Source: a virus
DNA length: 6,806 nucleotides
Direction: 5' to 3' (one strand)
Virus record (IMG/VR): IMGVR_UViG_3300011982_000007
Span: 1-6,806 of that record
Part shown: piece after piece, positions 1 through 6,806 of the stretch
Layout of the letters: each line of letters opens with the position of its first letter
Numbering within the stretch: the first letter of the stretch is position 1
Notes under the pieces: generated by a model
Databases searched by the model: none
What the model was told of the DNA's origin: nothing
The model's input: the letters and a program-made list of their open reading frames with translations, nothing else
Translations under genes and position numbers: made by a program

Positions 1-99
1 ATATCACGAGCGCGAGCAATACTCCAATACGATAACGGCTCTTCCCGACTGAATTGTCCGTGATTGATGTCTAATGCAGTCTTATACTCACTATAACGA
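1..99. repeat. Terminal redundancy (left copy), identical to 6708-6806. It marks a circular molecule of 6,707 nt.
   Basis: Base-by-base comparison shows atatcacgagcgcgagcaatactcc...cactataacga at both ends. Confidence 0.97.
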
Positions 100-1475
100 G
101 GCTGATAACCATAAGAGGGTACAACCTTAGAAGTAGATATAAACAGGGGGTTAAGCGGCTGCATTCCTAAGTTTTCAAACTCTGGAATAAAATAGTCTCC
201 ACGACCCTGCTTAACAACAAAGGGGTCGATGCGTTGGCAGTCGTACTGCATAGCAGGCACAAGAGAGTAAATACACATCAACACACCAGGCTCTTTGGCA
301 TCAAATTGAATTTCACCAGAACCACTAGCAGTACCTTTACCAGTCACCTTACCAAGATAACCTGCTAATTTGGCATTTCCTAAATCAGATACATTAGGAT
401 TAGTAGTACCACTAGTCTGGGTTACATCACCTACTTGAATATTGCTGTCAAATCCACCTAGATAGTACACTTGTCCGTCTCGCCCTTCAGACACCTCAAA
501 ACCAAAATGCGCCTTGATTTGTTCTGCATAGGTTTTGCCAGCACGCATAGTAATGGATAATAGCTTGTCAAGTGCAAAAGCACTTCTAATCGACTGGACA
601 GATACGTCAAAACGACCAGAACCACCATCAGGCTCAAGCAAAAACTGGTGTTGTGATTGAGCAGAATAAGTACCGACATTAATAGACTCTTTAGAGTCCA
701 ACAGATTAGAAGACGAAGAATTAAGATGCTCAAGAATACCAGGCACATCACCAAATATCGGGCTAGGCCGCAGATTGGTGAAATAATCAAGAGGAGCATT
801 GCGATAATGAAGATTAACATAGCTAGCCCATTCAGTCGGAGTAGGGTTAAATGTACCATTCTTATCGTCGACATTAAACGAAGAAACATCTAGAGTTTCG
901 TACGTATTGTTACGATAAAAATCAGCATACACCTTATTATAAGCCAACAAACGGAACAAATTTACATTACCTGTATAAGCATTTGCAATATCAACACCTT
1001 TGGAGTTACAAGGACGGCCATAACCAAGTAAATCAAGCAAACGAACAGAATTATTTTTTTGCGAAAAGCCAAAAATATCCTTATCATTGCGAGAACGAAC
1101 ATACTTGTACAACTCAACAAACTTGATATTAGGAACTAGTGCAGGAATTCTATTCGCAGCAGCTTTCGCATAAGCAGCACTACGAAAATCAGTCATACCA
1201 GTGATAAATTGGTCATACTGATGCCACAGCTGTGAATAGGGGACGAAAAAGAACTCATAAACAGAACGCATAGAAATAAACGCACTTGAGTTCATGGGCA
1301 TAGTACGCATGAAATCAGATGCCTGTATACGGATATGGTCGTGTATGTTCAAATCAACAGCCAAAACAGGCAACAAAGCACCAGGGGGCGCAGTAAACAA
1401 ATGTTTCTGAGATAAGTCAAAGGCATTACGCGGACGATTAGCACGCGGTGCCTTAATTTGAGGAACTTTTTTCAT
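1..1475 (-). CDS. VP1: Major capsid protein VP1 (phiX F-like). This is the 5' part of the gene: it runs off the left window edge and continues at 6707..6533 on the circle (1650 nt, 549 aa in total).
   Basis: Manual translation of the minus strand from the ATG at 1475-1473 gives MKKVPQIKAPRANRPRNAFDLSQKHLFTAPPGALLPVLAVDLNIHDHIRIQASDFMRTMPMNSSAF... It is open all the way to position 1. The N-terminal RNxFDLS...GxLxP signature and the length are typical of Microviridae capsid proteins. It is missing from the ORF track because there is no stop on this side of the window. Confidence 0.93.
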   Translation of the reverse strand, partial: MKKVPQIKAPRANRPRNAFDLSQKHLFTAPPGALLPVLAVDLNIHDHIRIQASDFMRTMPMNSSAFISMRSVYEFFFVPYSQLWHQYDQFITGMTDFRSAAYAKAAANRIPALVPNIKFVELYKYVRSRNDKDIFGFSQKNNSVRLLDLLGYGRPCNSKGVDIANAYTGNVNLFRLLAYNKVYADFYRNNTYETLDVSSFNVDDKNGTFNPTPTEWASYVNLHYRNAPLDYFTNLRPSPIFGDVPGILEHLNSSSSNLLDSKESINVGTYSAQSQHQFLLEPDGGSGRFDVSVQSIRSAFALDKLLSITMRAGKTYAEQIKAHFGFEVSEGRDGQVYYLGGFDSNIQVGDVTQTSGTTNPNVSDLGNAKLAGYLGKVTGKGTASGSGEIQFDAKEPGVLMCIYSLVPAMQYDCQRIDPFVVKQGRGDYFIPEFENLGMQPLNPLFISTSKVVPSYGYQPRYSEYKTALDINHGQFSREEPLSYWSIARARD

Positions 1476-1576: not shown

Positions 1577-3298
1577 CTAATCAATTACACGTGAACCATA
1601 TACGAATGTATTATTACGCTTTTTCGACTTATTTTTGTCATTAAACCGCTTGGTTTGCTGATTGACATAAGTCTTATAATAATCACTATAAAACAATGAA
1701 TACCGATGCAATTTTCTAGAATTGAACACACCAACAGAATAGAAATTACACATAGGGGCTACAGACCTAACAAACGTATCAGAATAAGCATTGCAAACAA
1801 CGCCATTAAGAGTATAATTATCGAATGCAGGTGAATAATTCGGCAGAGCAAGAGGAATATTATCATAAATAAGAGGATAAGCAGCCAACATAGCAGTCTG
1901 AAAATCAATCTTATCAACGATATAGTTAAACAACTCATAGAAGTTAACCATTTGGTCAGATTTACGCAATGTTTCATATCGGTCAAATAATCTAAGATAA
2001 ATAACTAACGGGTCAAGATACGGAGCAATCAAACTAAAATCAAACGAAATAGATACCTTATAAGCATTACGCACAGCGTAATAAGTCTGGTCGACATCAT
2101 ACTCATACGTATAATAGTCATAAGGATAATTACGCTCTAACCACTTTCGGTAATTCCATTGCCTATTGCTTTGCAGATAATCCGCAATAGACATTACATC
2201 ACCTATAAGAGAGTTATGCTCAATTACAGCACAATTCAACTCGTCTTTCCATTCGTTAAACTTTTCACCATAGAAAGAGTATACTCGAAATTTTTGAGCA
2301 GCAGAAAAAGAACTAAATCCTTTACACTTGCGGAAGATGGCAGAGCATAAATCGCGATTAAGTGGAAGAGATTTACACTCGAATTGTCCAAGTTTTTGGT
2401 TATAGACTTGCGTATCAACTCGATAAGTTCCTCGGTCGATGTTTCGGAATATTTCAAGTGCATCACTTTTAAACAATCCGATAACCGGCGATTTAGATGA
2501 GAGGTGGAACGGATGGACTTCGCGACATGCCAAAATTCTAGGTAAATCAGAGTTGCCAGACACATATTGCGCAACATAGTAGCTGGTGTTTGGGTCGCAC
2601 ATTTTACAATTTTGTCGGGTAAGGCGTACATCCGCATACGTCCTAGTTTCAAAACGATGGTTTGCGCCTGTAACTCGTTGTGTGACAGCCCAACACCGAA
2701 TGATGTAATCAACAATCTTTGTGAGAATAACCTCATTATCGAATGATAGGACACCGTGATAATGCGGACGGTAAGTCTTTGGCCCATACTCTGATGCGAA
2801 GTAATATCTAATTTTCTTTTCATTATTAGGTATATTTAATTTTGAAATAAGTTTACGAAGACGTTTCATAAAGTTTTGAATGTCCTTTTTACACACAGCT
2901 GCATAAACATTCGGTTGGTCATCATTCTCAATTTTCGGAAGAAAATCATCATCGTCAAATCTAAACTTTCCCGTCTTTGGGTCAAAATAATTCAACGGAC
3001 ATGAATTATACATGTATTCACATCTTCCAATAGGACGGAATTGAGGACAATCATTATCGTCATATATCTTTTCCCATCTAGGAACAAACTCGTTATTATA
3101 AGTAAGGGTCACCATCAAATTATAACGATGTTGACGAATTTCAGCATTAAGGCGAATAGACTGCTTTTCGGCAGCGGCATTCAAACAAGATACGCACTTT
3201 CCACACGAACAAAACATGGGTTCACCAGTCCACTTATTGTAAGTGAACACAGGGCTTTGACAACCACCAAATATTTTAAGCCTATTCGGGTCAATCAT
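1577..3298 (-). CDS. VP4: Replication initiation protein VP4 (HUH rolling-circle endonuclease, phiX gpA-like) with a long C-terminal extension.
   Basis: 573-aa ORF. Motif I is MVTLTY (aa 62-67). Motif II is RPHYHGVL, with HYH encoded at nt 2756-2764. Motif III is YVAQYVSGN, with two Tyr spaced YxxxY (nt 2564-2578), resembling phiX174 gpA YVAKYV. There is an N-terminal Cys cluster CSCGKCVSC. Confidence 0.93.
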   Translation of the reverse strand: MIDPNRLKIFGGCQSPVFTYNKWTGEPMFCSCGKCVSCLNAAAEKQSIRLNAEIRQHRYNLMVTLTYNNEFVPRWEKIYDDNDCPQFRPIGRCEYMYNSCPLNYFDPKTGKFRFDDDDFLPKIENDDQPNVYAAVCKKDIQNFMKRLRKLISKLNIPNNEKKIRYYFASEYGPKTYRPHYHGVLSFDNEVILTKIVDYIIRCWAVTQRVTGANHRFETRTYADVRLTRQNCKMCDPNTSYYVAQYVSGNSDLPRILACREVHPFHLSSKSPVIGLFKSDALEIFRNIDRGTYRVDTQVYNQKLGQFECKSLPLNRDLCSAIFRKCKGFSSFSAAQKFRVYSFYGEKFNEWKDELNCAVIEHNSLIGDVMSIADYLQSNRQWNYRKWLERNYPYDYYTYEYDVDQTYYAVRNAYKVSISFDFSLIAPYLDPLVIYLRLFDRYETLRKSDQMVNFYELFNYIVDKIDFQTAMLAAYPLIYDNIPLALPNYSPAFDNYTLNGVVCNAYSDTFVRSVAPMCNFYSVGVFNSRKLHRYSLFYSDYYKTYVNQQTKRFNDKNKSKKRNNTFVYGSRVID

Positions 3299-4079: not shown

Positions 4080-4167
4080 CTCGCTACATAATAACGCTCA
4101 ATGTTAAGAGTGTATAAGAGTGCTCGTACCTCGCACATGCGCTCATAAATTTCGCGCGTGTGTCTTA

Positions 4168-4188
4168 CGCGCCGTCCGTCACGGCGCG
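4168..4188. other. Hairpin with an 8-bp GC stem and a CCGTC pentaloop (copy 2).
   Basis: cgcgccgt / ccgtc / acggcgcg. It has the same loop and the same GCCGT...ACGGC stem core as 4026-4044. Confidence 0.8.
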
Positions 4189-4210
4189 CGCTCGTTGCAG
4201 AGTTAGCGGT

Positions 4211-4292
4211 AAATGTTAATAAATATATACAAATGGTTCAATATTTACATTATGTGTTAAAATACGTATTAAATTGGTTCAATATTTATAGT
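4211..4292. repeat. Two tandem, imperfect 41-bp units (about 73% identity) containing an exact 14-mer TGGTTCAATATTTA. Iteron-like.
   Basis: The exact 14-mer lies at 4234-4247 and 4275-4288. By hand alignment, 30 of 41 positions match between units 4211-4251 and 4252-4292. TGTTAA occurs at the same offset in both units. Confidence 0.85.
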
Positions 4293-4314
4293 GTCGCGTA
4301 AAATTTGTTAACTG

Positions 4315-4354
4315 CAACAAAACGAAATAACACCGCACTTCACAGCGCAGTGTT
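4315..4354 (-). terminator. Candidate intrinsic terminator for the minus-strand operon, downstream of VP2.
   Basis: Minus-strand RNA AACACUGCGC-UGUGAA-GUGCGGUGUU forms a 10-bp stem including 2 G.U pairs. Those two positions would be C.A/A.C mismatches on the plus strand, so the stem is strand-specific. It is followed by AUUUCGUUUUGUUG. Confidence 0.35.
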
Positions 4355-4405
4355 AAATTATCAAAAATCAAAATCAAAATAAACTAGATAATGAACTAAA
4401 ATAGA

Positions 4406-4413
4406 TATTTTTG
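4406..4413 (+). promoter_or_regulatory. Candidate TAnnTTTG -7 box on the plus strand, upstream of the 38-aa ORF.
   Basis: tatttttg matches TAnnTTTG exactly, 18 nt before the ATG at 4432. No -33 TTTG was seen. Confidence 0.2.
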
Positions 4414-4431
4414 CAATAAAACATATAAGAT

Positions 4432-4548
4432 ATGAAACAAATTATCAAAATAGCAATAGGAATAGCAATAGGAATAGCATTAAGCGTTATAGCAGTAATG
4501 GCATTTCTAGTAGCAATCGGATTAATAACTAGATTAGCTACTTCTTAA
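4432..4548 (+). CDS. Candidate 38-aa single-pass membrane peptide on the strand opposite all core genes.
   Basis: Translation: MKQIIKIAIGIAIGIALSVIAVMAFLVAIGLITRLATS. It has a basic N-terminus, a hydrophobic helix of about 25 residues and a short polar tail. Part of it is encoded by a 12-bp tandem repeat, atagcaatagga, at 4450-4479. It overlaps the VP2 stop codon convergently by 11 nt. It is below the length cutoff of the ORF track. Confidence 0.35.
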   Translation: MKQIIKIAIGIAIGIALSVIAVMAFLVAIGLITRLATS

Positions 4549-5878: not shown

Positions 5879-6019
5879 TCAAACATAGTCAGTAGGGTCT
5901 ACTTTTTTAGGGTTGTCACCAGACGGCTTGTCCTTGTCCTTTTTAAATTGGTCAAGAACCATTTTGAGGAATGGAATTGCAATCTCCAAAACACGAAGAA
6001 TTTTACCAAAAAGTTTCAT
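5879..6019 (-). CDS. Hypothetical 46-aa protein with an amphipathic/hydrophobic N-terminal half and a charged, Lys/Asp/Pro-rich C-terminal half.
   Basis: Translation: MKLFGKILRVLEIAIPFLKMVLDQFKKDKDKPSGDNPKKVDPTDYV. It is on the same strand and in gene order between the VP3-like gene and VP2. The internal ATG at 6019 is preferred over the 105-aa version in the ORF track, which would overlap the VP3-like gene. Confidence 0.45.
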   Translation of the reverse strand: MKLFGKILRVLEIAIPFLKMVLDQFKKDKDKPSGDNPKKVDPTDYV

Positions 6020-6532: not shown

Positions 6533-6806
6533 TTAAATTCGGGGCATACCATCCTCGGACATATCCGATACCTTTTCTATATTAAAGTGAGCATAACCAA
6601 ACATACAATCGGTAAGTTCAGTGCCATTGTAATCAACAGCGAATACAGAGTTAAGCCACCGAGGGTTAATCTTTAAGCTAGCAGCCTTAAATGATTGTAG
6701 CACATCCATATCACGAGCGCGAGCAATACTCCAATACGATAACGGCTCTTCCCGACTGAATTGTCCGTGATTGATGTCTAATGCAGTCTTATACTCACTA
6801 TAACGA
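6533..6806 (-). CDS. VP1: Major capsid protein VP1, 3' (C-terminal) part. Positions 6708-6806 duplicate 1-99.
   Basis: The same frame continues across the circular junction; codon 492 uses positions 2, 1 and 6707 (ATG). The sequence reads ...EEPLSYWSIARARDMDVLQSFKAASLKINPRWLNSVFAVDYNGTELTDCMFGYAHFNIEKVSDMSEDGMPRI with stop TAA at 6535-6533. 1475 + 175 = 1650 nt, which is divisible by 3. Confidence 0.92.
   Translation of the reverse strand, partial: RYSEYKTALDINHGQFSREEPLSYWSIARARDMDVLQSFKAASLKINPRWLNSVFAVDYNGTELTDCMFGYAHFNIEKVSDMSEDGMPRI
6708..6806. repeat. Terminal redundancy (right copy), identical to 1-99.
   Basis: Exact 99-nt match to the window start. It lies inside the VP1 coding sequence, so it is an assembly overlap of a circle and not a biological repeat. 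Confidence 0.97.

Follow-up and report, generated by a model that had tools for sequence, protein, structure and literature searches.

A probable reverse-strand gene for a one-helix membrane peptide downstream of VP2 in a microvirus genome, and its candidacy as a lysis factor

The small open reading frame and its surroundings

The DNA examined here (termed the window, that is, the whole 6,806-nt stretch of the IMG/VR virus record IMGVR_UViG_3300011982_000007) is a complete circular microvirus genome, and its 99-nt terminal overlap sets the true length at approximately 6,707 nt. Every large gene of the window is located on the minus strand, and the sole feature on the plus strand is a small open reading frame (ORF) that faces the 3′-end of the gene of a VP2-like DNA pilot protein (Table 1). 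An earlier examination of the letters alone (referred to as the sequence-only reading) had proposed that this ORF encodes a 38-aa peptide with one transmembrane (TM) helix, overlaps the VP2 stop convergently by 11 nt, follows an exact TAnnTTTG box and is partly built from a 12-bp tandem repeat, and each of these features was found at the locus. It had also placed a candidate terminator of the VP2-sense transcript at 4315-4354, which proved to be about right, and the ORF with its leader would indeed be enclosed by the inferred antisense 3′-untranslated region (3′-UTR) of VP2, as the VP2-sense hairpin lies beyond both the gene and the box.

The maximum Kyte–Doolittle value of the 38-aa peptide over 19 residues was 2.91 (TM segments were called by Kyte–Doolittle hydropathy thresholds throughout), and AlphaFold2, run on a five-sequence family alignment, returned a single continuous helix comprising residues 2–37 with a mean predicted local distance difference test (pLDDT) score of 93. 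The peptide belongs to a family named family A, the orthologues of which are 34 aa long in L011-L014, L106, and L109, and a 26-aa variant occurs in L001. The tandem repeat is an in-frame duplication private to the window, adding AIGI to a 34-codon gene, and the relatives of family A hold one repeat copy fewer with the frame intact. The sequence-only reading had allowed that the repeat could be a DNA-level element instead, but the duplication adds exactly four in-frame codons, which resolves that caveat. Longer ORFs were called in some relatives (45 aa in L013 and L014; 62–67 aa in L004 and L020), and these were rejected as true genes. Since their extensions contain the promoter box, the conserved internal ATG was taken as the true start. 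A protein homology search with the extended 45-aa ORF of L013 returned only 4 clusters, all of which were unnamed.

The primary sigma factor of Bacteroidota has TAnnTTTG as its −7 element, and Bacteroides mRNAs, which are devoid of Shine–Dalgarno sequences, have short 5′-UTRs, mostly of about 23 nt (PMC7366714). The motif alone was not significant in the window (13 matches vs. 8.6 expected). A −33 TTTG at suitable spacing was seen in some relatives (e.g., L003), and none was evident by eye in the window.

The hairpin beyond the gene was supported by covariation: all 144 cells were paired in 12 sequences, three pairs being compensatory and one an invariant G-U pair. Its fold energy was −19.2 kcal/mol on the minus strand vs. 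−10.2 kcal/mol on the plus strand. The hairpin and the T-rich tail following it are predicted to form a strand-specific intrinsic terminator of the VP2-sense unit, and the 3′-UTR of VP2 inferred from it (4537 to approximately 4318) would be antisense to the entire small gene and its promoter. On the VP2-sense strand, no conserved TAnnTTTG box was found between −400 and +260 nt of the VP2 stop among 17 genomes (consensus boxes only), and the window itself contained zero such boxes in this interval.

TABLE 1 Features of the window at and around the post-VP2 locus
Feature	Position	Strand	Basis
38-aa membrane-peptide gene, family A, MKQIIKIAIGIAIGIALSVIAVMAFLVAIGLITRLATS	4432..4548	+	ORF list, orthologues, AlphaFold2
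Candidate sigma-ABfr −7 box, TATTTTTG (TAnnTTTG)	4406..4413	+	exact match, 18 nt before ATG
A-rich short leader without Shine–Dalgarno sequence, inferred 5′-UTR	4414..4431	+	sequence
12-bp exact tandem repeat within the gene, 2.6 copies	4449..4479	+	Tandem Repeats Finder
Predicted terminator hairpin of the VP2-sense transcript, 12 pairs, GTGA loop	4328..4355	−	hairpin scan, covariation
T-rich tail after the hairpin, TTTCGTTTTG	4318..4327	−	T-rich tails in all 16 relatives listed
VP2-like DNA pilot protein, 426 aa	4538..5818	−	ORF list and weak PHROG pilot-protein match
Rep/VP4	3298..1577	−	
Major capsid protein VP1	1475..1 and continuation 6806..6533	−	
145-aa ORF and a small ORF	in the window	−	
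112-aa ORF	in the window	−	
Non-coding stretch, approximately 900 nt, many GC hairpins	in the window		

Conservation, codon-level selection and host

Profiles of VP2 and VP1 were used to gather relatives in IMG/VR, metagenomes, and GenBank, and the inventory comprised 25 genomes with a readable post-VP2 region. The sequence-only reading had called for a search for similar peptides at the same site, and a reverse-strand ORF of 26–74 aa with one TM-grade segment was present in all 25 genomes, ending in each case no more than 13 nt before or 17 nt beyond the VP2 stop. A TAnnTTTG box was located 15–48 nt before the ATG in 24 of the 25, including relatives with only about 31–40% VP2 identity; it was extended to TAnnTTTGCAA in most of the clade and remained invariant amid substitution- and indel-rich DNA in the clade alignments. 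The encoded peptides fell into approximately 11 sequence types, which could not be aligned with each other. Therefore, the frame, the promoter, the position, and the TM character were kept while the sequence turned over.

The chance control consisted of dinucleotide shuffles of the 320-nt region, in which ORFs of at least 25 codons ending at the VP2 stop and including a TM-grade hydropathy window were counted. Such an ORF occurred in at most 0.2% of the shuffles per genome, and in 0 of 2000 shuffles when the box was also required, while the real arrangement was found in 16/16 genomes of this test. When the whole genomes of L119, L121, and L122 were scanned under strict settings, this locus alone was obtained on the reverse strand. 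The origin of the ORF as a chance hydrophobic frame in AT-rich DNA was thus rejected on the shuffle controls and the positional conservation. We concluded that ORF 4432-4548 is very likely a real, separately transcribed protein-coding gene for a 38-aa peptide with a single TM helix, oriented opposite to all other genes. In this respect the relatives and the shuffles bore out the sequence-only reading, which had pictured a genuine TM-peptide gene with its own promoter box, facing all the others within the stretch from the VP2 stop to the terminator.

The outcome of the dN/dS-type check, also suggested beforehand, differed between families. In the sister family B (L004, L005, L015, L020, and L021) the ratio of non-synonymous to synonymous differences (pN/pS) was 0.14, the lowest of the six frames, and the variable sites in the part overlapping no other gene were distributed as 5/3/16 over the three codon positions, which indicates coding selection; the ratio for family C was 0.34. 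For family A (the window, L011-L014, L106, and L109) the signal was weaker. The reading frame, a TM segment, and RLATS at the C-terminus were common to all members of this family, their indels were in frame, and the changes fell mainly at the first codon position, where one hydrophobic residue was swapped for another. Several results weigh against the view of a gene under selection in the window, however. The pN/pS of family A was 0.69 with variable sites distributed as 12/5/9, a weak codon signal; the simulation of neutral mutation gave modest support only, which was inflated by shared ancestry; and the peptide of a close pair changed 3–6 times faster than the core proteins (pN of 0.142 vs. 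0.024–0.055). The C-terminal type of the small protein co-varied with the type of the VP2 C-terminal tail.

When the window was compared with L011 and L012, pS was 0.10–0.20 in the small gene and 0.62–0.66 in VP2. The low pS of the small gene and its tracking of the VP2 tail are suggestive of mosaic exchange, the breakpoints of which would lie within the small gene. These data also bear on the possibility that the peptide has another membrane role in the lytic cycle, as a partner of VP2 in DNA delivery or exit or as an anchor for replication or assembly, or that the family A ORF is decaying and its conserved promoter serves mainly for a regulatory RNA antisense to VP2. The gene adjoins and overlaps VP2 and co-varies with its tail, purifying selection in family A is weak, and a small-gene pS below that of VP2 hints at nucleotide-level constraint or recent exchange, all of which would suit such explanations. 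The retention of frame, TM character, and RLATS with in-frame indels in family A, the strong coding selection in family B, and the fact that nothing was found for virion association or any interaction argue the other way, and we regard this group of explanations as improbable.

Information on the lifestyle came from relatives with host flanks. L014, L022, and L106-L108 are prophages on contigs as long as 3.6 Mb, where they are integrated between rpsA and fur, the latter with hisS before it, and the small gene is retained in integrated prophages at this site. The hisS gene beside L014 showed up to 78% identity to Prevotella and Segatella genomes. When OR149004.1, a circular relative from GenBank, was compared, the integration junction mapped to the long non-coding region and was accompanied by a duplication of approximately 24 nt. 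Because relatives are integrated between fur and rpsA and the flanking hisS has such identity, the phage is taken, on genomic context, to be temperate with a host within the Prevotellaceae; Alpavirinae-like proviruses have been described (PMC3091885), and the prophage state and the Prevotellaceae host agree with these as well as with the type of the promoter. The VP2 proteins of the relatives were 50–64% identical to that of the window, and the GenBank label of the orthologue is “DNA pilot protein”. Whole-window megablast against GenBank phages gave no match, and a VP2-profile scan of GTDB genomes revealed no prophage relatives.

Some further observations were made on these genomes. In L106 (8273-15020), and likewise in L107, L108, L014, and L022, the prophage lies on a Prevotellaceae-like chromosome and an integrase is absent, which is consistent with Xer-type integration by the host. 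In the prophage L022 (4180-4650, on a 3.6-Mb contig) the promoter box is present and an A-run in the small gene carries a frameshift; since VP2 and hisS of the host are split there too, decay and errors of assembly are equally likely. The metagenome contig L017 (4180-4700) joins the VP2 3′ part of the window's clade directly to an array of clustered regularly interspaced short palindromic repeats (CRISPR) with at least 8 copies of the 36-nt repeat GTTGTATTATATCGTTTCTCTACATCAAACCACAAC. The junction was probably created by assembly through a phage-matching spacer; if so, it would be direct evidence that a host targets the phage. In the window, a same-strand 45-aa ORF (MKLFGKILRVLEIAIPFLKMVLDQFKK...) at 5879-6016 on the minus strand, between a scaffold-like gene and VP2, is the counterpart of a 38-aa “hypothetical protein” in OR149004.1, and the N-terminus of its product is amphipathic and the tail charged, a clean TM segment being absent. 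A 47-codon ORF at 4158-4301 on the plus strand (MCLTRRPSRRALVAEL...WFNIYSVA) is nearly unchanged in L003, L005, L015, L019, and L021 and is interrupted by a stop in L001 and L018; it looks like DNA-level conservation of a repeat or iteron region and not like a gene.

Same-strand counterparts and a proposed inversion in place

In distant relatives (VP1 identity of 28–50%), tiny same-strand “hypothetical proteins” annotated in GenBank right after VP2 proved to be one-TM peptides. A survey of 66 IMG/VR genomes was carried out, and then 73 genomes were placed on a VP1 tree (FastTree, LG model, midpoint root; approximate), the survey and the tree covering contigs of at least 5.4 kb with recognizable VP1 and VP2. 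A same-strand small TM gene of 30–46 aa, starting 17–62 nt after VP2, was present in 29 of the 73 genomes and the reverse-strand gene in 11; a Peptidase_M15_3 gene without a post-VP2 peptide was found in 15 (Pfam check), and the remaining 18 showed neither a small gene in this slot nor the peptidase. The reverse state formed one clade nested among the same-strand lineages, with the same-strand L125 as its sister. In profile comparison by hhalign, the reverse family B matched the same-strand family S1 with a probability of 95.4% (E 1.7e-8), and the two have the common motif EK[AD]KLF[KR]xIR. The order in same-strand genomes (L125 and L129) is VP2, small gene, and hairpin terminator, and the loop of the L125 hairpin is GTGA as in the window.

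These comparisons suggest that the ancestral Alpavirinae-like late unit would have carried a small one-TM gene as its last cistron, followed by the terminator, and that at the base of the window's clade this cistron would have been flipped in place, acquiring a sigma-ABfr promoter (TAnnTTTG). The flipped gene would now be flanked by the VP2 stop and the VP2-sense terminator, the latter unchanged; thus, its nesting antisense in the 3′-UTR of VP2 would be due to the inversion of the last cistron in place. For the clade as a whole, we hold with good confidence that the post-VP2 small gene underwent an inversion in place; for family A, to which the peptide of the window belongs, this is fairly likely. 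Comparison of family A by hhalign with families B and S1 and with the peptidase-linked peptides described below was not significant, and its tie to the post-VP2 slot consists of position and synteny, orientation, and the common promoter and leader. The 18 genomes without an assigned state probably include false negatives of the hydropathy threshold, since several of them are close kin of positives.

After such an inversion, late transcription would have to traverse the gene and its promoter in antisense, and convergent transcription or RNA pairing could damp the expression of the peptide. One elaboration of this putative regulatory step is that the clade-wide inversion inside the VP2 3′-UTR sets late transcription head-on against a lysis or exclusion peptide and serves as a lysis timer or a lysis–lysogeny switch in a repressor-less phage, which we consider unlikely.

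The same geometry had led the sequence-only reading to a type I toxin–antitoxin-like module, that is, a membrane toxin neutralized by the antisense 3′-UTR of VP2 and serving prophage stability or abortive infection. The peptide is small and hydrophobic with a single TM helix, and the gene with its promoter lies inside the interval from the VP2 stop to the terminator, so that a VP2 transcript reaching the terminator would be fully complementary to the mRNA of the peptide. This explanation is less likely, however, because no conserved VP2-sense TAnnTTTG box that could drive a dedicated antisense RNA was found and same-strand homologues of the neighbouring peptide family have no antisense partner. 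If the late mRNA acted as antitoxin, the lysogen, which needs protection most, would contain least of it; the geometry is accounted for by the proposed in-place inversion; and no match to known toxins was obtained in Pfam or PHROGs (PADLOC was not searched). The toxin–antitoxin proposal is consequently not favoured, and we regard it as very unlikely.

A possible role in lysis, rival functions and comparison with known systems

The sequence-only reading had noted that the genome has no recognizable lysis gene, and this was confirmed as far as Pfam and PHROGs are concerned, in which no ORF of the window matched a peptidase, lysozyme, or holin. Of the functions it had listed, the lysis or holin-like one is now best supported, by the late-cistron slot, the peptidase clade, and the match in size. 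Because the ancestral position is that of the last late cistron, a role in the lytic cycle is suggested. The post-VP2 gene is missing in the 15 genomes of the M15 clade, in 12 of which an own TM peptide of 26–29 aa abuts the start of the peptidase gene, and a lysis role is favoured because the clade without the post-VP2 gene has its own TM peptide beside the peptidase. This peptidase-linked peptide is a candidate mini-holin. It was observed in L185-L202 and L133 (e.g., L186:5365-5454 and L133:4196-4276), where it ends at or overlaps the peptidase start, and its sequence is MKSETKSKIWSAIIAAAVSLLTSIAQIFS or MKxNNIWKIxIGAVSAALGYILNAIGL.

According to the lysis hypothesis, the peptide would insert in the inner membrane and lyse the cell once its copy number and expression suffice, either solo, like the single-gene proteins of single-stranded RNA (ssRNA) phages and phiX174, or via a holin-like membrane lesion. 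Sub-threshold Pfam and PHROG matches obtained with seven peptide types (holin, E 0.034; XhlA, E 0.005) were TM-driven and were rejected as evidence. Three considerations count against this function: the mutual exclusivity of the peptidase and the small gene comes from one clade and hence represents one evolutionary event; a consensus promoter on a lytic gene in a single-copy prophage looks hazardous to the lysogen; and the rapid change of the peptide in the close pair, like the co-variation of its C-terminal type with the VP2 tail, would suit a superinfection-exclusion protein equally well. The assignment of the small peptide as a phage lysis effector is thus tentative, a little short of an even chance, and the joint explanation combining a real gene, its inversion, and lysis appears about evenly balanced. 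Even so, the post-VP2 small gene is the best candidate for the lysis factor of these related gut and oral phages.

The same prophage context could accommodate an accessory membrane protein expressed from the prophage (a “moron”), which would cause superinfection exclusion by blocking DNA delivery of related microviruses or another change of the envelope. The inversion and the own promoter would then permit expression while the lytic genes are quiet, and late transcription would silence the gene. Several properties are in line with this: the gene has its own promoter and is the sole gene in opposite orientation; the phage is temperate, and in the prophage the gene lies in the arm near the non-coding region next to the attachment (att) site, co-directional with fur and hisS of the host; the site is fixed, and the sequence occupying it is hypervariable and resembles a cassette, with recombination breakpoints inside the gene; the C-terminal type of the peptide changes together with the VP2 pilot-protein tail; and the fast amino-acid change relative to core genes also fits an arms race. 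However, most related phages have the homologue on the same strand, as the final cistron of their late unit, which points to a lytic-cycle role, and the clade in which the gene is missing is precisely the one that acquired a peptidase together with a separate TM peptide. Exclusion or a similar accessory function is therefore possible and somewhat doubtful in our judgement, and lysis is retained as the favoured function.

Microviruses are treated as strictly unidirectional, and a conserved reverse-strand gene shows that this rule hides real genes. Roux et al. (2012) reported a single complementary-strand ORF in Microviridae and called it unique (PMC3394797), and we found no other report of a complementary-strand Microviridae gene than this ORF of Human_gut_33_003. 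Owing to this rule, the largest curated microvirus data set discarded every gene facing against VP1 (PMC9239249), and the GenBank records of the clade (e.g., OR149004.1) annotate nothing at the site. No paper describing the present gene was found in a literature search, which was incomplete. The post-VP2 slot for a membrane peptide, which is occupied in the same strand, flipped, or replaced by a peptidase with a mini TM peptide, bears on the open question of how microviruses other than phiX174 lyse their hosts, and it offers a concrete lysis candidate for a large group of phages that abound in the gut and the mouth. The peptides would constitute new leads for a “protein antibiotic” against Bacteroidota if they turned out to block cell-wall synthesis. 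The putative in-place inversion would also provide a natural case for the study of convergent transcription in a 6.7-kb genome.

Among known systems, type I loci (hok/sok, and txpA/RatA and bsrG/SR4 of Bacillus prophage elements) likewise combine a small hydrophobic peptide with a fully overlapping antisense transcript, and some of them are prophage-borne. They use a dedicated small RNA with a promoter of its own, whereas the antisense RNA at the present locus would be the 3′-UTR of a structural-gene mRNA. Moron-type genes have their own promoter and an independent orientation and lie near a prophage end, and the window gene shares all of these traits. The complementary-strand ORF of Human_gut_33_003 adjoins a lysis-associated M15 peptidase gene (PMC3394797); it is a 153-codon ORF of one genome, conservation of which was not shown, while the gene described here is clade-wide, has a promoter, and displays codon selection in one family. 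Holins and pinholins are small membrane proteins with charged ends, and the TM peptide with the M15 peptidase in the sister clade resembles a holin–endolysin cassette. In the window, by contrast, no endolysin-like gene was found in Pfam or PHROGs, and one-TM peptides of 34–38 aa are shorter than most holins.

The same-strand post-VP2 ORFs (e.g., WMC01559.1 in OR149011.1 and XCD05221.1 in PP511531.1) agree with the window gene in slot, size class, and the single TM segment; they differ in orientation, and S1 is homologous to family B and not demonstrably to family A. The E protein of phiX174, LysM/SglM of levivirus M, and L of MS2 are, like the peptide of the window, tiny one-TM proteins of small phages with single-stranded genomes and no holin–endolysin pair. 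LysM has 37 aa and one TM segment (PMC12506998), and MS2 L consists of a soluble N-terminal part and a C-terminal TM domain (PMC10688784), a layout resembled by family B and by the reverse-strand peptides of L110 and L112. No Pfam or PHROG match of the small peptide to the E, L, or LysM families was obtained at E values up to 1 beyond TM-driven noise, and this does not exclude a lysis function, because single-gene lysis proteins as a class are highly diverse in sequence and do not form one homologous family. In phiX174, E is embedded in a gene of the same strand, whereas the window gene is freestanding on the opposite strand and has a separate promoter, in a phage of a Bacteroidota host.

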